64,000 nucleotides of DNA, from the IMG/VR virus record IMGVR_UViG_3300027798_000013; one strand, 5' to 3'. Made by a program: the position numbers and the translations under genes. The first letter of the stretch is position 1. The number at the start of each line of letters is the position of its first letter. The notes under the pieces were generated by a model. The model was not told where the DNA came from. It was given only the letters and a program-made list of their open reading frames with translations, and did no database searches. This document shows positions 4,657-49,981 of this stretch, one piece after another. The DNA comes from a virus (Duplodnaviria; Heunggongvirae; Uroviricota; Caudoviricetes).

Positions 4657-5706
4657 TTGCCTATGCAGAAAATAACTGATACTATGTCATTATGCGAGCA
4701 TTGTTATAGACACGTGCCTGCTGTTAAGTTTGAAAAAGATGGGGCAATTTGGCTAGGCAAGACTTGCCCTAAACACGGATACTTGGAACACTTGGTAGAG
4801 CCAGATGCAGACTTTTATCTAGATTACAATTATCCAAAACACCCATTAACGTCTTATTTCATCGAAGTCACCAATCGTTGTAATTTAACGTGTCCACACT
4901 GTTATCAGTTACCAGACAACAAAAGTGTAGATTTACCAATTGATTATATTGTACAACAAGTGTCCAGCTGGCCAGACGATGGCTATTGTGTATCGTTAGC
5001 TGGAGCTGAACCTACTGTACGAAAAGACTTGGATCAGTTAATTCGAGCAATCAAAGCTATTCCCGGCAAGCCAAGAAGTATTATTGTGTTGACAAATGGT
5101 GTTAATTTGTCTAAAATAGAGTATGCAGAAAAGTTTAAAGACATTGAAGATTTGCATTGGACTATAGGATTGAATCATCCGGATTATCAAGGGCATACTG
5201 TTCGTGCTAAACAGATTCAGGGAATAGAAAATTGTGTCAAGCTAGGATTTAGCATTAAGAATATCAGTTACACGCTAGAAGATTTAGAGCAACTAGAATA
5301 CTGCTTGGACGAAATACACAAATTTTATCCAGATACTTGCAAGCAATTCAGGATCCGAGTTGGCGTTGATATTGGGCGTAATCCAGAAGGCCCGCCTGTA
5401 TACCTCAGTCAGTTGGTCGATGCTACAAAAGATATAGCATTGAAACGCAACTGGACATACAGGGAAAATCAGGACACTGGGATTCGAGCACATTTTCCGA
5501 TATATATTAATAACATATATCTTAAATTAATACAGTGGCCCGATGCTACTACTATTGATATGGATGAGATGCAAACAGAAACCTGGGCTGATTTATTGCC
5601 AGGCAAACCAATTAGTCCTTTAATACACCAAGTTATGTTACGGGATGCAAGTGTCAACAACGGTATGATGTTATACGATGTTGTACCTGAAAGATATAGG
5701 AGATAA
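4657..5706 (+). CDS. radical SAM enzyme with an N-terminal CxxC...CxxH ribbon-like segment
   Basis: CNLTCPHCYQ (CxxxCxxC) about 80 aa in. Upstream are CEHCYRH...CPKHGY, downstream GAEPT and TNG-like motifs. Confidence 0.75.
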   Translation: MPMQKITDTMSLCEHCYRHVPAVKFEKDGAIWLGKTCPKHGYLEHLVEPDADFYLDYNYPKHPLTSYFIEVTNRCNLTCPHCYQLPDNKSVDLPIDYIVQQVSSWPDDGYCVSLAGAEPTVRKDLDQLIRAIKAIPGKPRSIIVLTNGVNLSKIEYAEKFKDIEDLHWTIGLNHPDYQGHTVRAKQIQGIENCVKLGFSIKNISYTLEDLEQLEYCLDEIHKFYPDTCKQFRIRVGVDIGRNPEGPPVYLSQLVDATKDIALKRNWTYRENQDTGIRAHFPIYINNIYLKLIQWPDATTIDMDEMQTETWADLLPGKPISPLIHQVMLRDASVNNGMMLYDVVPERYRR

Positions 5707-5707
5707 A

Positions 5708-6775
5708 ATGAAAATTAGCAAAATACCAGGACTGGGAAGATTTGGAATCTTTATCGATGATGTAGATTTTACCACCATTACCGACGAGGAGTGGATGGAG
5801 ATTGGAAAACTACATTTACAAAATTTAGTCACGATCATACGTGACTGTAAATTAACTTGGGACAAGCAAACTGATTTTTGCACACAGTTTGGCGATACTA
5901 GATACGGTGTTAGATACCTAATACTTAAGAAATATCCAGGCAAAACATTTACACAGATAGCAAGGTTAGCCATGCAAGATGATCCCAGTGTGGATGAGAT
6001 TGATCGTATTAGATTAAAAAGCATATTCAATATGCAAGAACTTACAGCTGACGGAAAACACGTTATGCGAGTCACTGGCAAGAAGGACGAAAACGGTAAC
6101 GCTTTAGGCATGTTTGCAGAAGGTGAGTTATTGTGGCACAGCAACGAAAGCGGCACATTAACATTTACACCGGGCGTAGCATTGTTAGGAGCTGAGAATA
6201 TGATTGGTTCCAGCACTGGATTTTTGACTACACCGGACTACTATGAAAACGTGAGTAATGCGTTTCGTAGTGAGTTGGATGAGATGATCCTAGTACATAG
6301 ATTTACTCCTGGACGTATTAATCCAGGATTGCGTGTGGAGCAAGACGAAGTAATGCATGCCAACATGTGTCCCGAAGATGATATGGAAATACCTATGGTT
6401 ATTACTAGTCCGGGCGGTATTAAAGGTCTACACTATAGTACCAACACAATACACAATATCAAAGGACTTAGTAAAGAAGCCAGCGATGAGATCTTTAAAG
6501 TTATCAATTCAGAATTGTTTGTGGAAAAATACACATATGATCACTGGTACAAAAGCAATAACGATTTTTGTCTTTTTGACAACAGTATTACACTGCACCG
6601 CAGACTAGGCGACATTAAAGACAGACTGTGCTATCGTGTACAACATGATTATAGTAATTTGCAGGACGGATTTTGGCAACCATATTTGCACGAACCAACT
6701 GCTAAAAGATACGAAGAAGAAATCAAATATTATGTTGATCTAGCAAACATTAAGGACTTTAAGTTACCAGCATGA
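5708..6775 (+). CDS. TauD/TfdA-like putative Fe(II)/2OG dioxygenase
   Basis: N-terminal LGRFGIFIDDVDFTTITDEEWMEIGKLHLQNLVTIIRDC...FGD pattern typical of TauD-family N-termini, then WHSNESG. AGGAG sits 7 nt before the ATG at 5708. The track's upstream start overlaps the previous gene. Confidence 0.5.
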   Translation: MKISKIPGLGRFGIFIDDVDFTTITDEEWMEIGKLHLQNLVTIIRDCKLTWDKQTDFCTQFGDTRYGVRYLILKKYPGKTFTQIARLAMQDDPSVDEIDRIRLKSIFNMQELTADGKHVMRVTGKKDENGNALGMFAEGELLWHSNESGTLTFTPGVALLGAENMIGSSTGFLTTPDYYENVSNAFRSELDEMILVHRFTPGRINPGLRVEQDEVMHANMCPEDDMEIPMVITSPGGIKGLHYSTNTIHNIKGLSKEASDEIFKVINSELFVEKYTYDHWYKSNNDFCLFDNSITLHRRLGDIKDRLCYRVQHDYSNLQDGFWQPYLHEPTAKRYEEEIKYYVDLANIKDFKLPA

Positions 6776-7560
6776 GATCCTTTATTACATCAATAATGTT
6801 ACTTGGCGGAGTGATAGCACTATTCAATATCGAATGGTACTGGCTAGTGTTGGCATTGGTTTATACAACAGTGCTTAACGATGTGTTTTGCCATCGCATT
6901 TGCAGTCACGGCATGTTTGAAATTGATACCAAATCAATCACATATAAGATTATGACTTTTCTTGCAAGTGCTGACATGGGTTACGGGCCAGTCAAATGGA
7001 TTGTGATGTCACACAGTTTGCATCATATACACAGCGACAATGGTCCTGAGGACGTTATGAACTGGCGCTACCATTGGTACAGCACCACTATCGTTAGCCC
7101 GTGGCCTCGTAAGGATGTAAAGCCTGCTGACTACGATGACTATTCTAAAAAACAATGGAAGAAGCATGAAGAAATAATGAGAGACCCATGGACTACTTGG
7201 TGCTGTGATAACCAAGTTGCTATTTCTATTGGAACGTTTTTAATTTTAGCCATAGTTTTTCCGTTAGTATTGCTTAATGTAATATTTGTAGGTAGAGTTT
7301 TGCTGAGCGTCATGACTGGGCTTGCAGGATTTGTTGGGCATATTAAAAATGTTCCGGCAAGCTATAGAAATTTTAACACCAACGATACAACATCAAACAA
7401 TATTTTATTACATTATTTGTTCCTAGGAATGTTTGCTGGAATGTTACAAAACAATCATCACGGCCAGCCTAGGTCAGTTCGTCCCAATGCCAAATGGTGG
7501 GAGTTAGATACAAGTTTGCCTTTTGTATTAACATTAAAATATGCCATGGAAAAGAAATGA
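6772..7560 (+). CDS. membrane di-iron desaturase/hydroxylase-like protein
   Basis: Multiple hydrophobic segments. His boxes HRICSHG, HSLHHIHSD and NHHGQP, as in fatty-acid desaturase/hydroxylase family enzymes. Confidence 0.55.
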   Translation: MRSFITSIMLLGGVIALFNIEWYWLVLALVYTTVLNDVFCHRICSHGMFEIDTKSITYKIMTFLASADMGYGPVKWIVMSHSLHHIHSDNGPEDVMNWRYHWYSTTIVSPWPRKDVKPADYDDYSKKQWKKHEEIMRDPWTTWCCDNQVAISIGTFLILAIVFPLVLLNVIFVGRVLLSVMTGLAGFVGHIKNVPASYRNFNTNDTTSNNILLHYLFLGMFAGMLQNNHHGQPRSVRPNAKWWELDTSLPFVLTLKYAMEKK

Positions 7561-9423: not shown

Positions 9424-10017
9424 ATGTCTGCTTACATAACCGGCGAACATAATTTAACATTCCTCCACATACCCAAAACAGCAGGTACTAGTATACTTGA
9501 TTGGTTGCGTACTAATAAAGGCGATAGTAATATCGTCGAATGGGAAACCCATCCTAAACATTCAGAATTACCGCAGGGAAACACTTCTTTTGCTATTGTA
9601 AGGAATCCGTGGGATAGAATGGTCAGTGCTTATCATTATTTAAAAAACATATCACTACCAGAAGGTAGCAGTTGGCTTGCACTTAATAATATTTCGCAGG
9701 ATAATTTTCCTAACTTTGATGAATGGATTAATAATCTAGCAAACTATAAAAATCCAGATGTATATTGGTTTAGGCCTGAAACACAGCAAATAGAATGGCT
9801 GGATCGGCCAGTAGATATAATTTTAAGATTTGAAAATTTAGCAGAGGAGTTCAGACGGATACAACATCATTATGGATGTTTCGATCCGTTGCCATTATTA
9901 TACGCTACCAAACACGAATCCTATAAAAATTACTACACAGAAAAAACTAAATCGATTGTTGCAAAATTTTCGCAACGTGACATAGATACTTTCAAATATA
10001 GTTTTAATATCCAATAA
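9424..10017 (+). CDS. PAPS-dependent sulfotransferase family protein
   Basis: FLHIPKTAGTSILDWL (5'-PSB-like) and RNPWDRMVSAYHY (3'-PB-like) motifs. Confidence 0.65.
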   Translation: MSAYITGEHNLTFLHIPKTAGTSILDWLRTNKGDSNIVEWETHPKHSELPQGNTSFAIVRNPWDRMVSAYHYLKNISLPEGSSWLALNNISQDNFPNFDEWINNLANYKNPDVYWFRPETQQIEWLDRPVDIILRFENLAEEFRRIQHHYGCFDPLPLLYATKHESYKNYYTEKTKSIVAKFSQRDIDTFKYSFNIQ

Positions 10018-11905: not shown

Positions 11906-11945
11906 AGGAATATTTATGCGCTAGTATAACTCAGTTAAATACTTT

Positions 11946-13208
11946 ATGAATATAAATACTCCCACATTTTGTATGCATCCTTTTACAGGATTAGCTACCA
12001 GAGAAGATGGCGCTATACAAGTATGTTGTCGTAGTCATCCAATTGGTAACATACAAGATAACACTTTGGAAGAAATATGGAACGGGGATAACATGAAGCG
12101 TATTCGTAAGCAAGTGCTTACAGGTTGTAGACCATCAGAATGCGAGCCTTGTTTTAGATTAGAAGATCAAGGTGTAGAGAGTTTGAGACAGCGACACATC
12201 TCGGGTAAGATTCCCGAAGCCCGTATTAATCTATATCCAACGGCTGTTCAATCTATGAATAGTGATTATACCATGCCGTTTGAGATTCCTACCATGGAAC
12301 TTAAACTAAACAACTTGTGTAATCTTAAATGCCGTATGTGCCATCCGGGAGACAGTACCGCGTGGAATGATTGGGCGGAAGTTAAAGAGTTTTACAAAGG
12401 TGAAGGGCAAGTTATATTTGATATTGTTGAAGCACACAATTTAGAAAAGAAACCGTTACTGGATAAGTTTGAAGATAATCCCAATTGGTGGGCAAGTTTA
12501 GAAAAGAACTTGCCATACTTCCGCCGTGTTGAGTTTGCAGGGGGCGAACCCCTAATGGACCCACAGCACTATCGTATATTAGATATGCTTGCACCTTACA
12601 GTGATCAAATTGAAATCAAATATGCCACTAACTTAACTACGCTGGGCAAGAGTAATCGCACCGTGTGGCAATACTGGCCCAAGTTTAAAAGTGTTGCTGT
12701 TAATGTAAGTATTGACGGAATTGGCGCTAGTTACGAATATGTACGAGGTAATGCTAGTTGGTCAGAAGTAGTGAACAATATTAAACAAATACAAACTATA
12801 CCTAATGTAAGCCGCATAGTAGGTGCGGTAGCTGTGCAGGTTAGCAATGTACTCATATTAGATAAAATGATTGAACTGTTCCTCAACGATTTGGGAATTG
12901 TATTCTACACTAATATGGTACAGTATCCCAATGTGCTATCTGCACAGGTTATTCCTAACGAATTAAAATCGCTTGCTGTTATTAAATTAAAAGCGGTTAG
13001 AGAATTAGTTCCGACTTTTAAATTAGTAAAAGAACATCCAATGTTAGAAGCATTAACTTACAAACAGATTGACGGCATAATTAATTTTATACTAGCGAAG
13101 GATAACACACACTTATGGGATGATTGCATAGAGTATAATCGACGCTTAGATGTTACAAGACAACAGAGTTTCTTTGACGTGACTCCGGAATTTGCTTCTT
13201 ACGTATGA
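11946..13208 (+). CDS. radical SAM enzyme, large type with an N-terminal Cys-rich domain
   Basis: CNLKCRMCHP core. N-terminus reads FCMHPF...VCCRSHP...GCRPSECEPC. Paralog of ORFs 16744..18129 and 43940..45136. Confidence 0.8.
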   Translation: MNINTPTFCMHPFTGLATREDGAIQVCCRSHPIGNIQDNTLEEIWNGDNMKRIRKQVLTGCRPSECEPCFRLEDQGVESLRQRHISGKIPEARINLYPTAVQSMNSDYTMPFEIPTMELKLNNLCNLKCRMCHPGDSTAWNDWAEVKEFYKGEGQVIFDIVEAHNLEKKPLLDKFEDNPNWWASLEKNLPYFRRVEFAGGEPLMDPQHYRILDMLAPYSDQIEIKYATNLTTLGKSNRTVWQYWPKFKSVAVNVSIDGIGASYEYVRGNASWSEVVNNIKQIQTIPNVSRIVGAVAVQVSNVLILDKMIELFLNDLGIVFYTNMVQYPNVLSAQVIPNELKSLAVIKLKAVRELVPTFKLVKEHPMLEALTYKQIDGIINFILAKDNTHLWDDCIEYNRRLDVTRQQSFFDVTPEFASYV

Positions 13209-14032
13209 AAATAACAAATCTCGATCCTAAAAAATACAAACGATTTTTTGCATTTGGATGCAGTTTTACCAATTATCAATGGTTGACATGGGCTGATATT
13301 ATAGGACATGATATAGAGTATTATGAAAATTGGGGCAAGCCTGGCGCCGGCAATCATTTTATCTTTAACAGTGTAATAGAGGCCGATGCAAAGTATGGCT
13401 TTGGCAAGGACGATTTGATTATTATCTTTTGGAGCACAAAGGAAAGAGAAGATAGATATCACAACAATGCATGGTTGCGCGATACTCTTCAAACTCAAGA
13501 AAAAACATACGGCAAAGAATGGGCTAAAAAGTTCAGTACAGATACTAGAGGATTTTTAATAAGAGATTTAGCATACATGAAAGCCATTCAAACTATACTG
13601 GAAAATAAAGAATGCGATTGGGCTAATTTTGCATGGTATGAATTTTTTAACAGTGAACAATTAAGAAAATCATTTGAGAATTCTAAAAATAAAGAACCTC
13701 TATTAAAAATTTGGAAAGAGAAAAGCCAAGAAGTTTACAATGGAAAAGATATTGCTGATTTTTTTGATGATCGCGATGCTATTAAACTGTATCAGGATGT
13801 CTTTATCAAAATAGATGCCACTTATAAATGGTTCAATGATGGACGTATTAATTCTAGAGTTGTGCCTGATAACGATGTTCACCCTACGCCAGAAGAAGCA
13901 CTACAATTTTTAGACTGGGTATGGCCAAATAATACAATAAGCAATAACGCTAGGGAACTAGCAAAACAATGGCAACTAAAAATATTTGATACGTTTGATA
14001 CGTTTGATCGTAAACAAGCAAGTAGACTATGA
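13205..14032 (+). CDS. SGNH/GDSL-like hydrolase family protein
   Basis: FAFGCSFTNY (block I), GAGNHF (block III), DNDVHPTP (block V-like). Paralog of 14906..15751. Confidence 0.55.
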   Translation: MKITNLDPKKYKRFFAFGCSFTNYQWLTWADIIGHDIEYYENWGKPGAGNHFIFNSVIEADAKYGFGKDDLIIIFWSTKEREDRYHNNAWLRDTLQTQEKTYGKEWAKKFSTDTRGFLIRDLAYMKAIQTILENKECDWANFAWYEFFNSEQLRKSFENSKNKEPLLKIWKEKSQEVYNGKDIADFFDDRDAIKLYQDVFIKIDATYKWFNDGRINSRVVPDNDVHPTPEEALQFLDWVWPNNTISNNARELAKQWQLKIFDTFDTFDRKQASRL

Positions 14033-14925
14033 TTAAAGTAACCAGTCGTTGGCCGCATCAGGACAGCATCAAGATAGAATGGAATCTTGGTAAACGATGT
14101 AACTACGACTGTAGTTATTGCCCAGCAAGTATACATGATAACTCAAGCCCGCACACTGACATAGAGATTCTTAAATCCACTGTGGACAGACTAATGACAC
14201 TAGGCAAACCCATACGTCTTAGTTTTACTGGAGGCGAGCCGTGTGTTCATCCTAAGTTTAGTGAGCTAGTAAAATACTGTAAACATGTTGGCATTAGTTG
14301 GATCAGTGTGACAACTAACGGAACATTGCCTTATGAATTTTATTCAGTATTGGAAGCGGATCAAATTGTGTTCAGTATACATTTAGAGTTTGACTGGAGG
14401 CGTGTTTTTAATACTGTAGAAAGTGTAGTAGATTTAACCAACAAAAAAGTCATAGCACAAATAATGGCGCATCACGATTATATGGATGCTGTATTACAAT
14501 TACGTGCTAGATGCTTGTTAGCCCATATTCCTAATACTGTAAGACGTATACGATGGACTGAAGGCGACCACGATTTATTTGATGATATGCGTTATAACAC
14601 AAATGATTTAAACTGGCTCAATGAACAAGAAGCCACTGTGGACGGTAATTGTGTAATAGACGGTGAGCAAATAATACACGCTAACGATGTTATTAAATTG
14701 CACCTAAACAAATACAAAGATTGGACTTGCAACGCAGGTATAGAAAGTCTAATGATAAATTGGAACGGGGATGTACACAGAGCGACTTGTAGAGTCGGTG
14801 GTAGTCTTGGCAACATATATGAAGGCAACTTCGTTGCTCCTAGCGAACCTGTAACTTGTGACCGTAATTTCTGTACCTGCGCGGCTGACATTCCACTTAC
14901 AAAATATGCACATACAAACACTTAA
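14029..14925 (+). CDS. radical SAM enzyme, short type with a C-terminal Cys cluster (SPASM/twitch-like)
   Basis: CNYDCSYCP near the N-terminus. C-terminal CNAGIES...CRVGG...CDRNFCTC. Confidence 0.8.
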   Translation: MIKVTSRWPHQDSIKIEWNLGKRCNYDCSYCPASIHDNSSPHTDIEILKSTVDRLMTLGKPIRLSFTGGEPCVHPKFSELVKYCKHVGISWISVTTNGTLPYEFYSVLEADQIVFSIHLEFDWRRVFNTVESVVDLTNKKVIAQIMAHHDYMDAVLQLRARCLLAHIPNTVRRIRWTEGDHDLFDDMRYNTNDLNWLNEQEATVDGNCVIDGEQIIHANDVIKLHLNKYKDWTCNAGIESLMINWNGDVHRATCRVGGSLGNIYEGNFVAPSEPVTCDRNFCTCAADIPLTKYAHTNT

Positions 14926-15751
14926 CCCTTCCAAATACAAAAGACTATTTACTTTTGGATGCAGTTTTACACGATACCTTTGGCCAACTTGGGCAGACAT
15001 TCTTGCAGAAGATATACCATACTATGAAAACTGGGGTTGTGGTGGCGCGGGCAATCTTTATATTTCTAATGCTATTATGGAAGCCCACAATAGGCATACA
15101 TTTACTGAAGATGATTTGATTGTAGTCATGTGGAGTAACAAAAATAGAGAAGATCGATATGTGGATAACAAATGGATGTTAACTCCTGGAGCAATGCTAG
15201 AAGAACGTTACGGGGCTAAATGGATTAAAAAGTTTTACGATGATCGCGGATGCATGATTAGAGATCTAGCCTTGATTCAATCAACGCAACTTTTCTTGGA
15301 TACACTAGACAGTGATTGGATTAACATGTCTATCAATACGTTTGCCAACGGTGATATCGATAAAATAAAAAAAATCGCTCCTGCATACTTGGAAGGTAAT
15401 GCAGATTACCATCAAGAAATTATTGTTCCATTACATCAGGGTGTTATTTCAGACCTGTTTATAGATCGAGATGTTATTGACTGCTATAAAAATGTATTTT
15501 TAAAGTTACAGCCGTCTGTGCTTAATATGTTACAAGATACTAGTGAATACAAATTGCGAGGCCGTCCTAACAAAAGTGATGGACATCCTACTCCTGCTGA
15601 AATTTTAAAATATTTAGATTTAGTATTTCCGGGCAATACCATTAGTTCCAAAGCTAGAGCTTATGCAGAATCATTTGAAGAACAGATATGGTCCCAAAGA
15701 ACTACTACAGAGATTTTTGAATCTAGATCGCAAACAATCATTAGATTATAA
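14906..15751 (+). CDS. SGNH/GDSL-like hydrolase family protein
   Basis: LFTFGCSFTRY, GAGNLY, SDGHPTP. The homologous N-terminus places the start at the ATG at 14906. Confidence 0.55.
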   Translation: MHIQTLNPSKYKRLFTFGCSFTRYLWPTWADILAEDIPYYENWGCGGAGNLYISNAIMEAHNRHTFTEDDLIVVMWSNKNREDRYVDNKWMLTPGAMLEERYGAKWIKKFYDDRGCMIRDLALIQSTQLFLDTLDSDWINMSINTFANGDIDKIKKIAPAYLEGNADYHQEIIVPLHQGVISDLFIDRDVIDCYKNVFLKLQPSVLNMLQDTSEYKLRGRPNKSDGHPTPAEILKYLDLVFPGNTISSKARAYAESFEEQIWSQRTTTEIFESRSQTIIRL

Positions 15752-16747
15752 GTTTGTTAATTCAGGAAATTTTGTCTTAGTTAAATGTGTTTCTGGAATA
15801 CAGGTACAACACTCCATCTGGCACTTTGATTGTTTAAATTCCGGATTGAATATATCGATAAAGTTATTGTCTAAAATATTATATCTTTGATCAAATAGTG
15901 GCTGTCCACACGATCCTTGTATTACTCCGTCCCAGCTTACATAGATAGAATCCAAACCAATATTACAGTCCCAACCTTTAAAATTAGTCCATCCGCGGTT
16001 AACATACGTATTGGGTGTGGCCAGCACTGGAAGAAATTTATCTTCTAACCAGACAATACTTTCAAATATTTTCATAGACCCGTCAAAAATTAAATTATAA
16101 TTTTTTAAAAACCATGCTGGGTTTGGTAATCTTTTTAATTCCTTGGACATATAAGTCTTTTGTACTGTAGTATATGGAAGATATCCCACAACTTCTTTAG
16201 CTAGTATAAACCAAGGATATTTGCTGTGTGCTTTCATATACTCGATAGCATCAACACACGAGTCCCATATAGTTGGATCCATTAATACTAATATTGTTAC
16301 TTTTTTATTTAAAGAATACAGTATATCAGCAACGTCAATCATGTGGTCGATATCACCTTCTTTGACATGATGTGACAATGTTGCATTATCAATTAAGTGA
16401 CCATTTTCTTTCCACCAACGCAAAGTTCTTGATCCGTTTGATGTAACACTTACGTAGACATCGTTTGATTTTTTTATTTCTAAAATAACTTTATCTAAGT
16501 CTTTCCATAATGTTGGCTCTCCGCCGCCTATATCTAGATGAAATTTAGTTTTTCCTAATTTAGTATACTGATTAAACAAATGTCGAAAATTAGAAATTAC
16601 CATACTGGTATCAGTTGGTACTTTAAAGTTGCCTTCATTTGATCCAGGAAAACAATAATCACACTTGAAATTGCATACGTTACTGGGACTCCATCTTATG
16701 TTTAAAATATTAGTCTTGGCAAGAGATTTTATTTTAATCGGGTTCAT
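15746..16747 (-). CDS. radical SAM enzyme, short SPASM/twitch-like type
   Basis: CNFKCDYCFP. C-terminal CNIGLDS...CGQP...CQMECCTC. Confidence 0.8.
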   Translation of the reverse strand: MNPIKIKSLAKTNILNIRWSPSNVCNFKCDYCFPGSNEGNFKVPTDTSMVISNFRHLFNQYTKLGKTKFHLDIGGGEPTLWKDLDKVILEIKKSNDVYVSVTSNGSRTLRWWKENGHLIDNATLSHHVKEGDIDHMIDVADILYSLNKKVTILVLMDPTIWDSCVDAIEYMKAHSKYPWFILAKEVVGYLPYTTVQKTYMSKELKRLPNPAWFLKNYNLIFDGSMKIFESIVWLEDKFLPVLATPNTYVNRGWTNFKGWDCNIGLDSIYVSWDGVIQGSCGQPLFDQRYNILDNNFIDIFNPEFKQSKCQMECCTCIPETHLTKTKFPELTNL

Positions 16748-18129
16748 AGCAAGTGTTCTAATTCAGGAAATACTTCCCTAGCATCTACATTGCGAATAGC
16801 ATCCAAGTTAACAACATACTCTTTAAAGTCTGGCAACAAATGTGTATGATCTTCTGCTTGGATAAATTTTAAGATGCCCTCCCAACGTTTCCAACCGTAT
16901 GGATTATCTTTCCAAAAATTATCATCTTGCCTATAGTTTTCCCACAACCAGTTTTTAAAGTCAGAAAATTGTTGTACAATTTCTTCCTTGTCTGCTTGGG
17001 GTAAAATCCTAGCACTTAAAAATGTTGGTATGTATAACAAGTGTAAGTTGATGATGCCGCCACCAGTTTGGTATTCGTCAAGTGAAAATTTATTAATCTT
17101 TTTAAATCCTTGAGTCAGTTTCCATTTGGCAAAATCGATAATATGCTTAATGTTAAACACTTGCACCGCGCAGGCTATTGCACAATGTACATTATCCGGT
17201 GCGTTATCCATTAACCACAAGCTACGTTCTATATCAGCCCAGTCAGTTGGGTAGCGAATGTAATTGTTACGTTCCATAACAGCATCTATACTAAATGCAT
17301 ATCGAACTTGTTTGAATTGACTCCAAACACTGATAATATCCTCGTTGACAAATATGCCGTTACTGTTATAACGCAAACTGATATTCTTAGCATAGCCACG
17401 ACGAATGATTTCATCTAAAAAGCGTCTATGCTCTTTGATCATTAATGGCTCGCCACCTGCAAAGTACAATTGAGTTATGTTAGGAATCTGTTCAAACACA
17501 TCATCCCAAAACTCTGGTTTTTCATACCATGTGTTATTGAATGATGCTTTATCAAAGCCCACTTGGTGCAACACAATAGTGCTTTTTGTTTTGGCTACTA
17601 GCTTGTCATAGTCTTGTAACCAGCGACTACTGTCATGCGGACTGCACATAACGCATTTTAGGTTACAAGTATGTCCAAGTCTTAAATCCAAGTATCGTAT
17701 AACAGGAGGAACAGCACCAGTATTATCAGTGTCACTGATAAGTTTATTAAAATCAAGACCGTCACGATTCCACTCATACATTTCCCATAAGCGTTTGCTT
17801 ACGACTCCATTGGATTCTTCTTCGAAACATTTTGTACAGCTGGCAGGAACATTACCTGCCAGCATGGTTAATCTCACGCTACGCATATACTGATTGTTAA
17901 ATGCTTCCAAAGGAGTTTCACGACCAAAGTTCGCAGGAGACCCATCTTCTTTTTTGACTAGCCCCACAGTATGATCTCCTGTAGCCGCGCCGCTAGCATT
18001 AGTGACACAACACAATCTAGCATCACCGTTAGGGCGTGTGGCCAAATGAATCCAGGGCAGAGCGCAGAAAGTCTTGCTTCCTGTCTTTTCTTCGATTAAT
18101 TTTACATAACCTTGTATCTTATCCTGCAT
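16744..18129 (-). CDS. radical SAM enzyme, large type with an N-terminal Cys-rich domain
   Basis: CNLKCVMCSP. N-terminus FCALPW...LCCVT...SCTKCFEEE. Confidence 0.8.
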   Translation of the reverse strand: MQDKIQGYVKLIEEKTGSKTFCALPWIHLATRPNGDARLCCVTNASGAATGDHTVGLVKKEDGSPANFGRETPLEAFNNQYMRSVRLTMLAGNVPASCTKCFEEESNGVVSKRLWEMYEWNRDGLDFNKLISDTDNTGAVPPVIRYLDLRLGHTCNLKCVMCSPHDSSRWLQDYDKLVAKTKSTIVLHQVGFDKASFNNTWYEKPEFWDDVFEQIPNITQLYFAGGEPLMIKEHRRFLDEIIRRGYAKNISLRYNSNGIFVNEDIISVWSQFKQVRYAFSIDAVMERNNYIRYPTDWADIERSLWLMDNAPDNVHCAIACAVQVFNIKHIIDFAKWKLTQGFKKINKFSLDEYQTGGGIINLHLLYIPTFLSARILPQADKEEIVQQFSDFKNWLWENYRQDDNFWKDNPYGWKRWEGILKFIQAEDHTHLLPDFKEYVVNLDAIRNVDAREVFPELEHLL

Positions 18130-18967
18130 TTTCTAAATACCTCAATAAAGGGCTTACACCAACTGGACAATTATCTCGCATAGCAATATGTATAGCCGGA
18201 GTAGGAGTCAAGTTGAAATCCTGGCATATCTTAAAATAGTTATCCCCGTGTGTGTTCCACAAGTAATCTGATTTGAAATTTGATAAGAAATGATTTGCTA
18301 TCATGACCGGTGCTCGAAGTAACATGTGAAAATCATTCATTATGCTAATGCTGTCTGGCTGTGTGTGTTTTGTCCATCGTAGCCCTACACGATTCCATCC
18401 TAGGCCCAGTCCTTTACTCAAGCTAATACCTACACTGCGGATTGATGGATGAGATAAATCAAAGTTGATTCCGCGACAGCAAGTAAGCCAAGCGCCATCC
18501 ACATGTACACCGATTCCCTTGTCTTGCGCTTCATCTAATACTTCCTCCATATTGATATGTACTGCGCCAGTGCTAGGAAACGGCATGGCAATTACTAGTG
18601 GTATATTTTCTCGTAACAGTCCTGGTCTAGTTCCCTGGTTACCTAGCCTATCGTGATATCTGTAATCATCAACAAGCACTTGTGGCTGGCATTGCATATA
18701 GATATTGTCAATGTATTGCGTACATCCTTGCATAATATCTATTCTGTCAAAAGTATCCAGTCCGGCTATATTATTAAGTGTACTGTTCTCTAACCAGTTA
18801 GACATGATTTCTTTAAAATCAACATAGACATTGTCCGATATATCTTTGTCCAGGGTTCCATCCAGCACTTCTTGTATAGTTTCTTCTATCAAGTTGTCAC
18901 TAAGAGGTTGCGGGCGTTCAGTTTCTAACCAGCGATCGGAATAGTTGGTTGCTATTTTAATTCTCAT
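18119..18967 (-). CDS. putative PLP-dependent (fold-type I aminotransferase-like) enzyme
   Basis: GVHVDGAW...SLSKGLG resembles the Asp/Lys PLP-binding region. Weak call. Confidence 0.4.
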   Translation of the reverse strand: MRIKIATNYSDRWLETERPQPLSDNLIEETIQEVLDGTLDKDISDNVYVDFKEIMSNWLENSTLNNIAGLDTFDRIDIMQGCTQYIDNIYMQCQPQVLVDDYRYHDRLGNQGTRPGLLRENIPLVIAMPFPSTGAVHINMEEVLDEAQDKGIGVHVDGAWLTCCRGINFDLSHPSIRSVGISLSKGLGLGWNRVGLRWTKHTQPDSISIMNDFHMLLRAPVMIANHFLSNFKSDYLWNTHGDNYFKICQDFNLTPTPAIHIAMRDNCPVGVSPLLRYLENAG

Positions 18968-20033
18968 GTACTACCTGATCTCTTGATTTTCCAAAATCAT
19001 TTATTGGTGCGCGACCACACATCCTGGCACAGGTTATTAAACTGCGTTTGTCCCAGTACTCGTACCACAAGTGTTGATAGCTATCGGACTCTATGATATC
19101 TTTTACGCCAAGTGCTACAGCGTTCAAATTGCCAATGCCGCCAAACGCTTCAACTATATCATGATATTGTGATAACATTTCATATCGCACTTCAGCGGCA
19201 TCATTTTTATCTATAAAGGTATACGGCGCACTTGCTATCCAACAACATGGAAATACATTCTTAAATGCATCTATATATACTGCTCGCTGATTTAGTGCTT
19301 GACAATCAATAACCGATTCGGATACTATTTGCTTGTAAGCATTAATAGCATTCTTGTCGATAAACTTTAAGGGAGTATCGGATGCTGGCTCGATTATATG
19401 TGTGACATTTCCATTCTTATCTAATACATCTACTTTAGGCTCGAGTAGGAAACGAGAACTGTTTTTCATAACAAAACTGGCAAAACCTAGATCCTTGCTC
19501 ATCTGCCTAGCTTTTTCTACTTGATCTTGGTTGTGTTTGAATCTGATAAAACACCATTCAGCAGTTCCGCCGGCGGCAATAAATGCCTTGGCATTTTCTA
19601 TTATATTTTCAAAACTTGTTCCAATACGGTAGACGTTGTGTGTATCACTAAGTCCATCTAACGCAAATACTACTGTGTGGATTTTTGGTAATGCTTTGGC
19701 CAAGTCACTCCACCAGCTGGTAGTTCTAGCACTGCCGTTAGTGTGTATACGCACATTGAGATTGGGATTGGTTTCTGTAGAATATCTACACATGTCGATC
19801 AGTTGTTTGTTCAATATAGGATCTCCAAAATTCCCACAAAAGAAAAAACCGTTTATTTGATTAAGTACTTCGGGAGTCATAATAGTTTTGAAATCTTCCA
19901 AAGACCAATCATTTAATTTTATTAAAGGATTCTCCAAGCCGCCACTACGATTGCGCGAACACATGGGACAACTGGCTTGGCAGTTGTTGGTAATCTCTAA
20001 ATGTACATCTAATAACTCGTTAAAGTGAAACAT
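18957..20033 (-). CDS. radical SAM enzyme
   Basis: CQASCPMCSR at the N-terminus, IHTNGS, FALDGLSDTHNVYR. C-terminal Cys-rich segment. Confidence 0.75.
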   Translation of the reverse strand: MFHFNELLDVHLEITNNCQASCPMCSRNRSGGLENPLIKLNDWSLEDFKTIMTPEVLNQINGFFFCGNFGDPILNKQLIDMCRYSTETNPNLNVRIHTNGSARTTSWWSDLAKALPKIHTVVFALDGLSDTHNVYRIGTSFENIIENAKAFIAAGGTAEWCFIRFKHNQDQVEKARQMSKDLGFASFVMKNSSRFLLEPKVDVLDKNGNVTHIIEPASDTPLKFIDKNAINAYKQIVSESVIDCQALNQRAVYIDAFKNVFPCCWIASAPYTFIDKNDAAEVRYEMLSQYHDIVEAFGGIGNLNAVALGVKDIIESDSYQHLWYEYWDKRSLITCARMCGRAPINDFGKSRDQVVHEN

Positions 20034-32407: not shown

Positions 32408-32417
32408 GGAGAAGATT

Positions 32418-39061: not shown

Positions 39062-39071
39062 GGAATAAAAA

Positions 39072-39908
39072 ATGAGATCGCATTATTGGACTATTGGAAA
39101 ATTTTCAGACTGGCTTCGCGGCACACCCAAGCTCAAGTGTGGCACTAGCGAAGAATGGGATGCCTGGTATAAGACTGCTGAAAAAGCACATCCTATCCGT
39201 TACTGGATTGCCGAAGAAGGTCTAGACCACCTTCAAAAATTTGTTTACTACATACCGGACAAGCTAAATGACATACGCTATTATATTAACAATCGCTGGG
39301 TTACTCACAGCCATGCTCTTACCGCCCATCCTCGAGACATACAGCCGGGCAACTGGAGTGATGTGGGCAATCGCTTTCTTCCTTGTCTTTTCAATGAGCT
39401 TGTTAATTTTGTTGAAATAGAACAAGCGTGGCATCACTGCTTGTGGAGTGATGAAGCCAAGACCCAATTCAATGTGCCTTGGTACCGCACTGGTTGGCTA
39501 CGACTACGTACATGGCGCAGTCCAGAAGCCGGCATGGAATATTTGAAATGGGCCAGTGAACTCACTGTTGGCGAGGACATGGGTGCTGAACCTGGTAGCG
39601 AAGGATTTGGGGAACCGACCTGGCAAGCCAAAAGTGCTAAGGAAATTATTGAGCTTTACACTTGGTGGACTGTGACCTATCGCGCTCGTCCAGACCCGCA
39701 TAACGCCAGTGGCTGGAGTGCGTACTGTGAAGCAAGCCGTATTGCCAACGGCGGCAAACTAAGTTGGAGTAGTGACAAGAGCCCTGAACTCAAAGCCATG
39801 AGCGATGCCGCACACAAAAAGCTACAAGAAATCGAAGTGGCTTACGAAGCAGAAGATGAAGCCATGATGATTCGTCTTATCAAAATACGTCAAAGTCTTT
39901 GGACCTAA
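39072..39908 (+). CDS. hypothetical protein
   Basis: ORF track. Confidence 0.5.
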   Translation: MRSHYWTIGKFSDWLRGTPKLKCGTSEEWDAWYKTAEKAHPIRYWIAEEGLDHLQKFVYYIPDKLNDIRYYINNRWVTHSHALTAHPRDIQPGNWSDVGNRFLPCLFNELVNFVEIEQAWHHCLWSDEAKTQFNVPWYRTGWLRLRTWRSPEAGMEYLKWASELTVGEDMGAEPGSEGFGEPTWQAKSAKEIIELYTWWTVTYRARPDPHNASGWSAYCEASRIANGGKLSWSSDKSPELKAMSDAAHKKLQEIEVAYEAEDEAMMIRLIKIRQSLWT

Positions 39909-41308
39909 TGAAGGGCGATGAAGTAACTAACGTAAACGGCCGCTTTGAATCACATTACTTAAATGATTCGGAGTCGGTCTTTTCTGCCCTTAACAAAGTC
40001 AGCCCTAGTTTCTGTCTTGCCAAGTGGTACAATGTCAGCATACACATACCCACAGGTCGCACACACAGTTGTTATCATCCGCCCACACATCAAATTCCTC
40101 TGAAGGAAATTGCTATTGATGTATCAGCACTACACAATACCAAATATAAAAAGAATCAGCGTAAACTCATGCTGAAAGGTGAGCGGCCGATCGAGTGCGG
40201 ATTTTGCTGGCAAATTGAAGACAGCGGCACACAACTAAGTGACAGAGCTTATCGTAGCAAGGATGTGTATGAGCCTGGCTTGATAGAAGAAGCGCAGTTG
40301 GTAGAGAATCCTAATCCACGTTATGTGGAAGTAAACTTTAATCAAGCCTGTAACTTGAAATGTAGTTATTGCTCTCCGCACCTAAGCACAGAGTGGAACA
40401 AGGAAATAGACCGACACGGGCCTTACTTGTTAGCAGACAATAAAACACACAACGACACACAATGGATGCGGAATCAAAACATGGTTCCCAACAACAGTTT
40501 AGACAATCCATACTTGTTAGCTTTTTGGGAATGGTTACCACAGATATATCCCACACTACACACCTTCCGCATGACTGGCGGCGAACCTTTGATGGACAAG
40601 AATACATTCCGTATGTTTGATTACGTTAAAGAACACCCAAGCGAGCGGTTACATCTAAGCATCACATCAAACTGTTGTCCACCTAAAGGACAATGGACTA
40701 AGTTCATGACCAGCTTGAAAGAGATTACAGATACGGATGCTGTTAATCACTTTATGTTGTTCTGTAGTTTAGACTCGTGGGGTGCTCAAGCAGAGTATAT
40801 TCGTAATGGTTTAGACTTCTGTACCCTATATACTAACATAACTGACTACTTGAAGAACAGTAGCAAACACAGTCTTACCTTTATTATCACATTCAATGCC
40901 CTGAGCTATACTGGCTTTGTTAAGTACATTGAGAACATACATAAATTAAGACAAGAATACAACACAGATAGACAGCTGATCTGGTTTGACATTCCTATGC
41001 TGAATGACCCTATGTGGATGAATCCCAAACTGCTACCTAACATGGTGTCTGAATTAGAACGTGCTATAGATTTTATGAAGGCAAATGAAGAAGGCGAACA
41101 CAATCGCTTTAAGGGTTTTAAAGATTTTGAAATCAGCAAAGTACAACGCCTGATTGACTGGGTAAAGAGTGACAGCAAGTTTGACAGAGCCACAGCAATG
41201 AAGAACTTTTATCTATTCTTTAGCCAGCATGATGAACGCAGGGGAACAAGTTTTTTAAATACATTCCCCGAACTAACAGACTTTTGGAACACTTGTGAAA
41301 AGACCTAA
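39899..41308 (+). CDS. radical SAM enzyme, tandem paralog 1 of 4
   Basis: CNLKCSYCSP core. N-terminus SPSFCLAKWYN...SCYHPPTH...ECGFCWQIED. Confidence 0.8.
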   Translation: MDLMKGDEVTNVNGRFESHYLNDSESVFSALNKVSPSFCLAKWYNVSIHIPTGRTHSCYHPPTHQIPLKEIAIDVSALHNTKYKKNQRKLMLKGERPIECGFCWQIEDSGTQLSDRAYRSKDVYEPGLIEEAQLVENPNPRYVEVNFNQACNLKCSYCSPHLSTEWNKEIDRHGPYLLADNKTHNDTQWMRNQNMVPNNSLDNPYLLAFWEWLPQIYPTLHTFRMTGGEPLMDKNTFRMFDYVKEHPSERLHLSITSNCCPPKGQWTKFMTSLKEITDTDAVNHFMLFCSLDSWGAQAEYIRNGLDFCTLYTNITDYLKNSSKHSLTFIITFNALSYTGFVKYIENIHKLRQEYNTDRQLIWFDIPMLNDPMWMNPKLLPNMVSELERAIDFMKANEEGEHNRFKGFKDFEISKVQRLIDWVKSDSKFDRATAMKNFYLFFSQHDERRGTSFLNTFPELTDFWNTCEKT

Positions 41309-42644
41309 CGAAACCGATTTAGAATATAAAAAACGTGTACTGGATGCTATTAGCCCCAGCTTCTGCGGAGCCAAGTGGTACAATGCCACTATCTGGCTTG
41401 GATCAGGGCAAACAACAAGTTGTCATCATCCGCCTGCACATAAAGCAGACATACAAATAGTTAAATTTAATCCCAAGGCAATTCATAACACTCCCCAGAA
41501 GAAAGAAGATCGCCGTAAGATGTTGGCTGGAGAACGTCCTTCAGGGTGTGAGTACTGCTGGAAGATTGAAGATATGGGTGTGGACGCTGTAAGTGACAGA
41601 CCTTACAAGAGTATGACATACACCGAAGAAGCATTGCTGGAAGCAACAAGAACTCCAGTGGACCAGGATGTGGATTTGCAAACACTTGAAATAGCATTTG
41701 ACCGTACTTGTCAGTTTGCTTGTAGTTATTGTAACCCAGCGTTCAGTACAACATGGGTTAAAGATATTAAGAAGAACGGTCCTTATGTTAATCTAGTCAC
41801 AGATGGTCGTGGACATTTTACTCATGTACACGAAAACGATCAGTTGTTTGACTTTCATGAAGAGAATCCGTATATTGAAGCATTTTTTAAATGGTGGGAA
41901 AGTGACCTACACCGCACACTGAAAGAGTTACGCATCACAGGTGGCGAGCCCTTGATGAGTGGGCACACTTGGAAGTTGTTTGATTGGTTTAAAGCAAACA
42001 AAAATAAGAGTACATGTCAGCTAGCCATTAATAGTAATTTGGGATTCGGGCAAGATGTAGTACAACGTATGCTAGACAGTACTGACGGTGTTAAGATGAT
42101 GCTGTATACCAGCAATGAAAGTGTAGGGCCACATGCTGAATACATTCGTGACGGATTGGAATGGAGTCAATGGATCAGTAATATGGAATTCTTGCTTAAA
42201 GCAGAACGTATGCGTCTAAGTGTTATGATGACTATTAACGCATTATGCTTGGAAAGTTTGCCTGAGATGTTGGATCAAGTAATGGCTTGGAAGAAGACGT
42301 ATGGACAATGGCACATTAACTTTAGTCTTAACATACTGCGTTTTCCAAGTTTCCAAAGTGCATTAACTTTGCCGGATCACGTTAGACAAGAATATAATAA
42401 ACGTCTTGCTGAGTGGTATGAACTTAATCGTGGCAATCCGGATTTGAATAACTTTGAAAAGAGTAATATTGAACGTTTGATAGATTACTTAGACATTGTT
42501 AAAACTCCACACGGTGAGGGTTATGTACAAGCCACAGCACAAAAAGATTTCAAACAATTTTACGAACAATATGATGTTCGTAGAGGAAAAGATTTCCGTA
42601 AAACATTTAGCCCCATGCTTGTAGAATGGTATGAATCTATTTAA
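41295..42644 (+). CDS. radical SAM enzyme, tandem paralog 2 of 4
   Basis: CQFACSYCNP. N-terminus SPSFCGAKWYN...SCHHPPAH...CEYCWKIED. Confidence 0.8.
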   Translation: MKRPNETDLEYKKRVLDAISPSFCGAKWYNATIWLGSGQTTSCHHPPAHKADIQIVKFNPKAIHNTPQKKEDRRKMLAGERPSGCEYCWKIEDMGVDAVSDRPYKSMTYTEEALLEATRTPVDQDVDLQTLEIAFDRTCQFACSYCNPAFSTTWVKDIKKNGPYVNLVTDGRGHFTHVHENDQLFDFHEENPYIEAFFKWWESDLHRTLKELRITGGEPLMSGHTWKLFDWFKANKNKSTCQLAINSNLGFGQDVVQRMLDSTDGVKMMLYTSNESVGPHAEYIRDGLEWSQWISNMEFLLKAERMRLSVMMTINALCLESLPEMLDQVMAWKKTYGQWHINFSLNILRFPSFQSALTLPDHVRQEYNKRLAEWYELNRGNPDLNNFEKSNIERLIDYLDIVKTPHGEGYVQATAQKDFKQFYEQYDVRRGKDFRKTFSPMLVEWYESI

Positions 42645-49819: not shown

Positions 49820-49981
49820 GCATTACTGGAGACTGTGGGCAAAAGCTCTGGGTGAAAAATCGGGCAGTTCGGACGTGGAAGCGGACCGAATTGCTTGCAT
49901 TAGAACTGCGATTGTGTTAATATATGTACTTACAAACTTTTTTATAATCTTAGGTGTCGTACGACACTGGTAAAGGCACAC

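Follow-up and report, generated by a model that had tools for sequence, protein, structure and literature searches.

A huge freshwater phage, with related contigs of up to ~370 kb, carries at positions 11946–15751 of the window (the whole stretch of DNA that was analyzed, 64 kb in length) a single translationally coupled operon, in which two radical SAM (rSAM) genes alternate with two paralogous genes for SGNH enzymes. This operon lies at the heart of an accessory island of low GC content that is rich in rSAM genes, 11 of which are found in the window. We tentatively propose (probability about 0.42) that the enzymes of the island tailor, in the cytoplasm, a carbohydrate or glycolipid from which LPS- or capsule-type envelope material of the host is made. 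To our knowledge, few accessory genes that lack an explanation are as common in large aquatic phages as those for rSAM enzymes, and we know of no multi-rSAM phage island with a known product.

Organization of the Operon

The genes of the operon are joined by ATGA overlaps:

11946..13208, + strand: A1, radical SAM enzyme with an N-terminal twitch/SPASM-like Cys-rich domain (N_Twi_rSAM; NF033640, 337 bits, cutoff 170)
13205..14032, + strand: H1, predicted serine esterase/acyltransferase with the SGNH fold, from a virus-restricted family that no model covers (block I F-G-C-S-F-T)
14029..14925, + strand: A2, short radical SAM enzyme, 298 aa, with a C-terminal Cys-rich tail, CDRNFCTC (Pfam Radical_SAM, 3e-11; CNYDCSYC)
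14906..15751, + strand: H2, paralog of H1 with the same catalytic motifs (BLASTP against H1, E 2e-68)

A1 matches the Pfam families SPASM (residues 9–69) and Radical_SAM (residues 123–283) and contains the motif CNLKCRMC, and the C-terminus of A2 resembles the STM4011-family rSAM NF038073 (E 7e-14, under the cutoff). The original prediction, made from the letters alone, had noted a pairing of rSAM genes with SGNH-like genes. This pairing is real, and both identities are borne out by models, motifs and a fold comparison that placed the putative hydrolases in the SGNH fold; the stop-start coupling and the paralogy of the two hydrolases hold as well. H1 and H2 share about 41–42% identity and each lies in its own clade of the family tree, H2 clustering with its counterpart in L028 (75% identity) in the position after the short rSAM. 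Judged by their sequences they are old paralogs, and with N_Twi copies that are 19–28% identical to A1 this does not fit the earlier idea of at least three copies of one two-enzyme cassette arising by duplication.

Promoter and terminator scans stayed close to background, with one promoter-like site (10/12) ahead of A1, at 11861–11889; within the operon itself no strong terminator was predicted. Neither a DNA similarity search with positions 11900–15800 nor tblastn with H1 gave a match among GenBank phages, so that there is no annotated relative to draw on.

Fold and Active Site of the H1/H2 Family

At 50% identity, the H1/H2 family falls into at least 1,456 clusters; it is found almost only in viral contigs, being nearly absent from cellular genomes. 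H1, H2 and H3 (a third SGNH protein, described below) had no match in Pfam, PHROG or NCBIfam at E <= 0.1 or 0.01, and the H1, H4 and DUF6071 profiles retrieved nothing relevant from the PDB by sequence. The proteins have the three-layer α/β/α architecture of the SGNH fold, and their structural neighbors include AOAH with bound LPS, the peptidoglycan O-acetyltransferases PatB and OatA, and many carbohydrate esterases.

Within block I of the H1 family, G18 and S20 are present in 211/211 sequences. The residue directly before the nucleophile is an unusual cysteine (Cys19, 98% conserved), with the canonical Asp at this position in three members. In the region of blocks II/III, which canonically supply the Gly and Asn (GxND) of the oxyanion hole, the family conserves N42-W-G44...G47-x-G49-N50 after strand 2 (N50 in 213/215); after strand 3 it lacks GxND, and W76...R81-E-D-R-Y stands there instead. 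In block V, H226 is found in 182/182 sequences and Asp224 in 176/182, at position –2 from the histidine (D-x-H-P-T-P) instead of the canonical –3 (DxxH). S20, N50 and H226 are invariant in the family alignment that includes H2, and both SGNH enzymes of the operon appear catalytically intact and are predicted to be esterases or acyltransferases. The catalytic serine lies at residues 8–20 in all four SGNH proteins of the window (H1–H4), which leaves no space for a signal peptide and argues for a cytoplasmic location. One member of the family, P0378, is a 618-aa fusion, but its N-terminal 366 residues contain neither CX3CX2C nor a Pfam match, ruling out a fusion to an rSAM enzyme.

Radical SAM Enzymes and Accessory Genes Around the Operon

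Further genes on either side of the operon are:

4663..5706, + strand: radical SAM enzyme of island 1 resembling lipid-tail (Tes) and TrsS rSAMs (NF045702, 4.9e-22; NF045646, 8.8e-22; both under cutoff)
6772..7560, + strand: fatty-acid-desaturase-family membrane di-iron protein of island 1 (PF00487, 6.6e-11)
9424..10017, + strand: sulfotransferase of island 1 (PF03567, 1.8e-10)
15746..16747, – strand: convergent short radical SAM enzyme, 333 aa (Pfam Radical_SAM, 9e-12; CNFKCDYC), kept as '<s' after H in related loci
16744..18129, – strand: convergent N_Twi radical SAM enzyme, 461 aa (NF033640, 382 bits), kept as '<N' in related loci
18119..18967, – strand: 282-aa protein in which S-L-S-K-G-L-G...R-V-G may correspond to the PLP-lysine region of aminotransferases (by motif only; no Pfam or NCBIfam match)
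18957..20033, – strand: short radical SAM enzyme, 358 aa (Pfam Radical_SAM, 4.8e-08)
20033..20824, – strand: P-loop kinase resembling APS kinase, with a weakly cytidylyltransferase-like C-terminus (PF01583, 3e-12; PF01467, 0.0056)
20821..21783, – strand: short radical SAM enzyme, 320 aa (Pfam Radical_SAM, 8.9e-14)

Island 1 also encodes a TauD-like protein and an LpxO-type hydroxylase, and Asp/Arg hydroxylases are among the island genes. The window contains six N_Twi copies, and the four that were scanned against NF033640, a family to which no reaction has been assigned, all exceed its cutoff (the two listed above, and the last two of island 2 with 236 and 281 bits). They share CX3CX2C and an N-terminal Cys-rich twitch, with Pfam SPASM at residues 9–69 and 7–75, and C9, C28, C66, C69, C125, C129 and C132 are invariant in the N_Twi alignment. 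Compared with the PDB, the N_Twi profile matched the generic rSAM core only (8vpo, MoaA, viperin, BtrN twitch), which is silent on the substrate; its best sequence match, a RiPP cyclopropyl synthase, likewise covers just this core. A comparison of the N_Twi rSAM with plasmids gave no match.

Island 2 Carries Two Other SGNH Families

A second island holds the remaining SGNH genes, preceded by a tandem array of N_Twi radical SAM genes (recognized with an HMM from the window's own copies, and by CX3CX2C):

39899..41308, + strand: N_Twi radical SAM, first of four
41295..42644, + strand: N_Twi radical SAM, second
42631..43950, + strand: N_Twi radical SAM, third
43940..45136, + strand: N_Twi radical SAM, fourth
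45129..45650, + strand: H3, small SGNH-fold protein, 173 aa (block I F-G-D-S-F)
45647..46360, + strand: H4, GDSL/SGNH protein, 237 aa (block I F-G-S-S-H)

The same four-gene N_Twi array is present in four related loci (L007, L008, L092 and L111). Island 2 has DNA ligase and a MazG-like gene on one side and PTPS/QueD and UvdE on the other, and adjoins tail-fiber-like genes.

Positions 43940–46360 had been taken for a recurrence of the couple seen in the operon, but H3 and H4 each represent a different SGNH family, and neither is related in sequence to H1/H2. G8-D9-S10 is invariant in the H3 family, as are G7-S8, H213 and H219 in the H4 family, and N155-H156 of H3 and G212-H213 of H4 make a Ser-His dyad possible in both. 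Pfam Lipase_GDSL (PF00657) is matched by 14/18 members of the H4 family (best 4.9e-08; E 0.18 for the copy in the window). As H1 showed no relation to H3 or to H4 when the profiles were compared with one another, we rejected the idea that the SGNH site of island 2 is a diverged copy of the H1/H2 site. The 282-aa protein at 18119 and a 278-aa protein at 39072, both beside N_Twi rSAMs, were considered as relatives of H1/H2 or of the DUF6071 proteins of Ralstonia phage RsoM2USA, and were dismissed on finding no BLASTP similarity.

Gene Neighborhood of the H1/H2 Family

Among 56 dereplicated H1/H2-family homologs, 44 adjoin an rSAM gene, against about 17.6–19.2 expected, a comparison whose P-values overstate independence because the compared loci share descent; 51/56 have an rSAM gene within three genes, and 12/56 have no rSAM neighbor. 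The median gap between H and an rSAM gene on the same strand is –4 nt, and the ATGA overlap is usual. The pairing is therefore conserved beyond this genome for the H1/H2 family, but not for the H3 family (6/43 adjacent to an rSAM vs. 6.0 expected, no enrichment), which pairs with H4 instead.

Adjacency events divide by rSAM class into 18 N_Twi, 32 short, 14 QueE-like and 6 B12-binding. The usual H1/H2 unit is not a 1:1 pair but a triad of N_Twi rSAM, short rSAM and H, facing a convergent short rSAM and N_Twi rSAM. The order varies while an rSAM neighbor is kept (N-s-H, N-H-s, H-N, N-N-H-H-N and B-H-Q; N, N_Twi; s, short; B, B12-binding; Q, QueE-like), even in a clade with 35–38% identity in which the partners have wholly changed to B12-binding and QueE-like enzymes. 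In the distant B-H-Q clade, the QueE-like rSAM that follows H scores 41–52 bits, far from the equivalog cutoffs of 200–300. A single conserved partner was rejected, since this enzyme and the short rSAM upstream of H are alike only at the superfamily level (84–111 columns).

The two kinds of gene might have no specific relation and simply reside together in a hypervariable island, through inherited synteny and tight phage packing. Consistent with this, rSAM genes make up ~19% of all genes in the compared loci, 53% of the other non-rSAM genes in the island spans adjoin an rSAM, and a strict within-island control per locus leaves a modest excess of H adjacency (33 observed vs. 25.3 expected). The absence of enrichment for H3, the 12 H genes without an rSAM neighbor and the general frequency of start/stop overlaps in phage genomes point the same way. 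We nevertheless regard this explanation as unlikely, if deserving of some weight, as rSAM genes on both flanks are far commoner for H than for other island genes (26/48 vs. 29/350 pooled; 20 vs. 7.6 expected in the strict control per locus), and adjacency outlasts several rearrangements as well as the complete change of partner family in the 35–38% identical clade.

Proposed Function in Envelope Precursor Tailoring

The carbohydrate or LPS reading is suggested by the sulfotransferase, APS-kinase-like, TauD-like, LpxO-type and desaturase-like genes of island 1, and by sugar-nucleotide enzymes and glycosyltransferases near H or N_Twi rSAM genes in relatives. In L008, a UDP-glucose/GDP-mannose dehydrogenase and DegT directly follow H4; in the B-H-Q clade, a GDP-mannose 4,6-dehydratase, a methyltransferase, a phosphoribosyltransferase and an SDR (the last by sequence inspection only) lie beside H. 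Vibrio phage K566 has GT8 and GT4 glycosyltransferases interleaved with N_Twi rSAMs and PagP nearby, and RsoM2USA has a carbamoyltransferase beside its N_Twi rSAM. An envelope target is further indicated by the structural neighbors, among them LPS-bound AOAH, and by the position of island 2 beside tail-fiber-like genes, which mirrors the pelagimyophage host-recognition island (PMC7029224). The 64-kb window itself yielded neither a glycosyltransferase nor a nucleotide-sugar enzyme, which counts against this reading.

In such tailoring, the rSAM enzymes would perform radical C-H chemistry on an intermediate (methylation, epimerization, dehydration or C-C coupling), and the SGNH enzymes, through a Ser20-His226 acyl-enzyme, would attach an O-acyl group to that intermediate or take one off. 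The interpretation offered by the original prediction is supported in part: a radical step followed by acyl transfer or removal is a reasonable, putative scheme, in which we infer the substrate class, the order of the steps and an esterase or transferase role for H. The original prediction also knew of no description of the cassette, and our literature search found no published account of rSAM-SGNH coupling.

Several observations speak against this tailoring scheme, including the missing GxND block III and the Asp at –2 in H, and the modest size of the within-island adjacency excess. Twitch/SPASM rSAMs mostly modify peptides, and the best PDB match is a RiPP enzyme; the Asp/Arg hydroxylases, TauD-like protein and sulfotransferase could equally act on proteins. 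Together with the rSAMs they might modify a phage protein, for example the giant tail fiber beside island 2, or a RiPP-like peptide, with the SGNH proteins as esterases or acyltransferases on the product. This is rather unlikely, given that neither a RiPP recognition element nor a short gene for a precursor was seen and that overlapping genes fill the N-s-H-s-N core, that in relatives H and N_Twi rSAMs have sugar-nucleotide enzymes and glycosyltransferases as neighbors, and that matches to RiPP maturases cover the generic rSAM core only, far under the family cutoffs.

Hypermodification of nucleotides or DNA, in which the phage genome would receive a modified base or a nucleotide decorated with a sugar (7-deazapurine-like or other) and the SGNH enzyme would strip a transient acyl group, would agree with the setting of island 2 between DNA ligase/MazG-like and PTPS/QueD/UvdE genes, with the QueE-like rSAM after H in the distant clade and the PP-loop and phosphoribosyltransferase genes nearby, and with a weak QueC match in L001. 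Campylobacter phages of the CP220/CPt10 type carry 7-deazaguanine DNA, and their 11–12 rSAM genes provide a precedent. We consider it improbable, however, as the QueE-like proteins fall far below the equivalog cutoffs, DpdA/TGT, GTP cyclohydrolase I and a base-hydroxymethylase were not found in the window, and eleven rSAM genes are far beyond any known DNA-modification pathway. Finally, the near-invariant Cys19-Ser20, the translational coupling and the Gly-Cys-Ser block of the DUF6071 paralogs flanking the RsoM2USA N_Twi rSAM recall anaerobic sulfatase maturation (Cys/Ser to formylglycine) by anSME enzymes, which are SPASM-type rSAMs, but it is highly improbable that the adjacent rSAM modifies the SGNH protein itself, as three members have Asp at position 19, 12/56 H genes lack an rSAM neighbor, H3 (GDS) and H4 (GSS) lack the cysteine, and the variable partner class (N_Twi, short, QueE-like, B12) fits a dedicated maturase poorly.

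Beyond precursor tailoring, it is conceivable, if unlikely, that three enzymes (N_Twi rSAM, short rSAM and Gly-Cys-Ser SGNH) work as a dedicated machine specific to viruses, perhaps physically associated, and make a novel radical-modified, acylated metabolite or envelope component during infection. If so, radical C-H activation combined with Ser-His acyl chemistry would be a new biosynthetic logic spread over thousands of uncultured freshwater phages, and not a variant of ordinary LPS O-acetylation. The four-gene coupled operon is a compact and concrete target, as the chemistry of both enzyme types can be assayed (release of 5'-deoxyadenosine for the rSAMs, ester hydrolysis or transfer for the SGNH enzymes), and it brings to light a large viral SGNH family missed by current domain libraries. 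Solving it would show how the phage affects the envelope or metabolism of its host, and could reveal new radical chemistry on sugars or lipids.

Comparison With Known Systems

Pelagimyophages and cyanomyophages have a hypervariable host-recognition island (PMC7029224), which in the pelagimyophages carries LPS genes and rSAM cassettes, and which resembles the present case as a variable island beside tail-fiber genes in a large aquatic phage. The rSAM cassettes were not analyzed in that study, which does not mention GDSL; the present phage is not T4-like by the matches obtained, and its rSAM load (11 genes in 64 kb) is much higher. Campylobacter phages CP220/CPt10 carry their rSAM genes in exchangeable modules of unassigned function, accompanied by amidinotransferases and not by SGNH proteins (PMC2853527), and these rSAMs have no BLAST-level homology to those of the window.

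Among isolated phages, a close N_Twi rSAM was found in the jumbo phage RsoM2USA alone (410 bits with the window-derived HMM). Its locus reads DNA ligase, DUF6071, N_Twi rSAM, two DUF6071, carbamoyltransferase, and the synteny from ligase to rSAM corresponds to 37374 to 39899 of the window. The flanking ~282-aa paralogs contain N-G-C-S-M, GGSxN and DHPLEExHK motifs, and align weakly with the H1 family (hhalign E 1e-3, probability 22%, in register over 136 columns), so that a relationship is a lead only. H1 and H2 did not match DUF6071 (PF19547) at E <= 0.1, a DUF6071 pattern scan in IMG/VR found no relatives, and tblastn in phages returned RsoM2USA itself only.

The closest known systems for the H proteins are SGNH/GDSL carbohydrate and lipid esterases and O-acyltransferases (ChoE, 6uqv; PatB, 7tjb; OatA C-terminal domain, 6vjp), together with CE2/CE3 esterases and acyloxyacyl hydrolase (5w7a). 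Unlike these enzymes, H1–H3 match no Pfam GDSL model, and the H1 family has G-C-S instead of G-D-S in block I, W-S-x-K-E-R-E-D-R-Y leading into a β-hairpin in place of the GxND block III, and an Asp at –2 from the histidine, in proteins that are predicted to be cytoplasmic and are nearly all viral.

Gene organization of the rSAM–SGNH operon

In the operon at 11946–15751, radical SAM (rSAM) genes (A1, A2) alternate with SGNH-like genes (H1, H2), and all four ORFs are present as originally predicted. Two further SGNH-like genes (H3, H4) lie at a second site, behind tandem rSAM genes with an N-terminal twitch domain (N_Twi):

11946–13208: A1, rSAM protein of 420 aa with a CNLKCRMC cluster motif, an N-terminal Pfam SPASM-like domain and a Radical_SAM core
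13205–14032: H1, SGNH-like protein
14029–14925: A2, short rSAM protein of 298 aa (Pfam, 3e-11) with a Cys-rich C-terminus
14906–15751 (counted from the ATG): H2, SGNH-like protein
43940–45136: fourth of four tandem N_Twi rSAMs, second site
45129–45650: H3, SGNH-like protein, second site
45647–46360: H4, SGNH-like protein, second site

A1 scores 337 bits (cutoff 170) on NCBIfam NF033640 ("twitch domain-containing radical SAM protein"). The A1/H1 and H1/A2 junctions are ATGA overlaps and A2 and H2 overlap by 20 nt, bearing out the proposed coupling of the operon genes; at the second site, the N_Twi gene overlaps H3 by 8 nt and the H3/H4 junction is again an ATGA overlap. H1 and H2 are indeed paralogs (42% identity, E 2e-68).

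The two sites had been read as one two-enzyme cassette duplicated at least three times, and this reading has to be abandoned. By BLAST and profile-profile comparison, no sequence relation of H3 or H4 to H1/H2 or to each other was detectable, the N_Twi rSAM copies are only 19–28% identical to A1, and the duplication behind H1 and H2 is old. A tree of 97 homologs places H2 with a gene of locus L028 (75% identity) in the position after a short rSAM, and H1 in a subclade that moved to flank the N_Twi gene.

SGNH fold and active site of the H proteins

None of H1–H4 matches Pfam, PHROGs or NCBIfam directly. The Pfam family Lipase_GDSL is matched by 14 of 18 H4-family members (best 4.9e-08), and fold prediction, set beforehand as a possible refutation, came out in favour of an SGNH fold for the putative hydrolases. 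The fetched loci and an exhaustive search together supplied 217 H1-family sequences for alignment, in which Gly18, Ser20, Thr22 and His226 are 100% conserved, Asn50 99% and Asp224 97%. Because of this conservation the family looks enzymatically intact, its members resembling working enzymes rather than decayed folds. It is atypical in three respects: block I reads G-C-S (Cys in 98% of sequences, Asp in three exceptions), the GxND block III is missing, and the Asp stands two residues ahead of the His instead of three. In all four proteins (H1–H4) the catalytic Ser lies inside the first 8–20 residues, leaving no space for a signal peptide, which points to a cytoplasmic location.

A metagenomic protein of 618 aa (P0378) carries an H1-family domain at residues 368–518, fused C-terminal of a 366-aa region with neither a Pfam match nor an rSAM motif. 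This fusion partner might disclose the pathway.

Distribution of the H1 family

The H1 family gives 636 matches among 90%-identity clusters and, when clustered at 50% identity, at least 1,456 clusters (E ≤ 1e-3); nearly all lack a functional name, and a Pfam domain was found in none. A scan with two peptide patterns matched at least 463 stretches of IMG/VR viral contigs and, among cellular genomes (185,579 bacterial and archaeal species, each represented by one genome), a single 6-kb contig, although distant cellular relatives could be missed by these patterns. As this contig (L089, from a Crocinitomicaceae bacterium MAG) shares its gene order with viral loci L039–L042, it probably derives from a phage and was binned together with a Bacteroidota MAG, a weak clue to the host. 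Contigs with H1-family genes reach 363–379 kb, indicating huge phages; in GenBank phages no H1 homolog was found.

Neighbourhood of the SGNH genes

Our ORF calls cover 90 sources, 89 of them fetched loci and the other the window itself, and the ORFs were labelled with HMMs built from the window's rSAMs, the H families and two further neighbour families. Relatives of H1/H2 at ≥41% identity nearly always lie in the order N_Twi rSAM, short rSAM, H, after which a short and an N_Twi rSAM follow in convergent orientation; in some loci H lies on one or other side of the first N_Twi gene instead. In a clade at 35–38% identity, H stands between an upstream B12-binding rSAM (PF02310 and PF04055) and a downstream QueE-like rSAM, with a GDP-mannose 4,6-dehydratase, a methyltransferase and a phosphoribosyltransferase nearby, as well as an SDR-like and a PP-loop protein recognised by sequence only.

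After dereplication at 90% identity, 44 of 56 H genes have an immediate rSAM neighbour, compared with 17.6–19.2 expected for a gene placed at random in that locus, and 51 have one within three genes; as the compared loci share descent, the P-values set an upper limit to the significance. Between H and an rSAM on the same strand, the gap has a median of −4 nt. In a stricter control, H was compared with the other non-rSAM genes inside the span that the outermost rSAM genes of a locus delimit: 33 were adjacent to an rSAM (25.3 expected) and 20 were flanked on both sides (7.6 expected). Pooled, 26 of 48 H genes are flanked on both sides, versus 29 of 350 other non-rSAM island genes. These counts make H a core resident of rSAM clusters; the specific pairing is real, but less striking than the naive test implies. 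Mere co-residence in the island, without a specific couple, is an unlikely account.

For the H1/H2 family the association with rSAM genes is genuine and conserved beyond this genome. The H3 family shows no enrichment beside rSAM genes (6 of 43, 6.0 expected) and is partnered by H4 or further H3 copies in 20 of 43 cases. Distant H3/H4 relatives form tandem arrays in L118–L124 (3-3-3-4, 3-4-3-3-4) with no rSAM nearby, so the expansion of small SGNH genes in these phages does not depend on rSAM genes. The order of four N_Twi rSAMs, H3 and H4 is confined to the lineage of the window, L007, L008, L092 and L111; L096 is a variant with three N_Twi genes, one set apart by an unrelated gene.

Gene content of the rSAM islands

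Eleven rSAM genes occur in the window, grouped into two islands (4663–5706, 11946–21783, 39899–45136). GC content is 0.36–0.40 in island 1, which includes the operon, and about 0.38 in island 2, compared with 0.40–0.44 in the intervening DNA. This difference suggests that the islands are accessory modules, either acquired or evolving fast. Other genes in and around the islands are:

1367–2002, 5678–6775, 6772–7560, 8360–8914: two Asp/Arg-hydroxylase (LpxO-type) proteins, a TauD-like dioxygenase and a fatty-acid-desaturase-family protein (the last at 6772–7560); island 1, upstream of the rSAM operon
9424–10017: sulfotransferase, island 1
20033–20824: APS-kinase-like P-loop protein with a weak cytidylyltransferase-like tail, island 1
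37374–39061: ATP-dependent DNA ligase and MazG/PRA-PH-like pyrophosphohydrolase, one side of island 2
49304–51004: PTPS/QueD and UV-damage endonuclease UvdE, other side of island 2
52216–63999: ORF of >3,928 aa running off the window end, tail-fibre-type N-terminus (GNDGTGDSIRDSFRKVNDNF), PTPS/UvdE side of island 2

Island 1 also encodes a Tes/TrsS-like rSAM. With the sulfotransferase and the APS-kinase-like protein, the phage may bring along its own means of sulfation. The oxygen-dependent oxidases of island 1 (hydroxylases, dioxygenase, desaturase-family protein) adjoin oxygen-sensitive rSAM enzymes. The arrangement of ligase/MazG-like genes, island 2 and PTPS/UvdE recurs in L007 and L008. 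A tail-fibre-like protein of 498 aa is also encoded on the PTPS/UvdE side, and the >3,928-aa ORF probably encodes a giant fibre for host recognition; its homolog in L007 has a called length of 4,721 aa.

At 31607–33113, an SPFH/Band-7 protein (PF01145, 1.9e-15) is directly followed by a strong match to the Bax-inhibitor-1/YccA family of membrane proteins (PF01027, 2.8e-54). Bacterial members of both families are associated with the FtsH protease, so this pair may let the phage interfere with proteolysis at the membrane.

A possible role in envelope precursor tailoring

Our preferred, still tentative reading (probability about 0.4) is that the rSAM and SGNH enzymes tailor a host-envelope precursor, either a carbohydrate or a glycolipid, in the cytoplasm. 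The rSAM enzymes would perform radical C-H chemistry on the precursor intermediate, and the SGNH enzymes would add an O-acyl group to, or remove it from, the same intermediate via a Ser20–His226 acyl-enzyme. The analysis shows the enzyme classes, the intact active sites, the translational coupling and the conserved neighbourhood; the substrate class, the order of the steps and the role of H as esterase or transferase are what we infer here. In L008, H4 is directly followed by a UDP-glucose/GDP-mannose dehydrogenase and a DegT aminotransferase; in Vibrio phage K566, GT8 and GT4 glycosyltransferases are interleaved with N_Twi-like rSAMs, with PagP close by.

That the enzymes modify a virion protein or peptide is improbable, and hypermodification of nucleotides or DNA more so. 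An rSAM acting as maturase of the SGNH protein is highly improbable, given the Cys19-to-Asp variants and the changing classes of rSAM partner.

Comparison with known phage systems

Literature searches found no published rSAM–SGNH coupling. The precedents in print do not go beyond description: LPS genes and "radical SAM cassettes" are present in the host-recognition islands of pelagimyophages (PMC7029224), and Campylobacter phages CP220 and CPt10 have 11–12 rSAM genes in exchangeable modules (PMC2853527). Such rSAM-bearing accessory islands have been noted before and never explained; here, rSAM genes within such islands are combined with an SGNH family that no model covers and that is apparently restricted to viruses. 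The Ralstonia jumbo phage RsoM2USA (MG752970, 123467–130403) has the order DNA ligase, DUF6071, N_Twi rSAM, two DUF6071 and carbamoyltransferase, all annotated "hypothetical" across its N_Twi/DUF6071 locus; as in the window, the N_Twi rSAM comes shortly after a DNA ligase. Its DUF6071 paralogs carry N-G-C-S-M, GGSxN and DHPLEExHK motifs, the Gly-Cys-Ser block resembles that of H1/H2, and their alignment with H1 is weak and in register. RsoM2USA offers an isolated, cultivable proxy for experiments.
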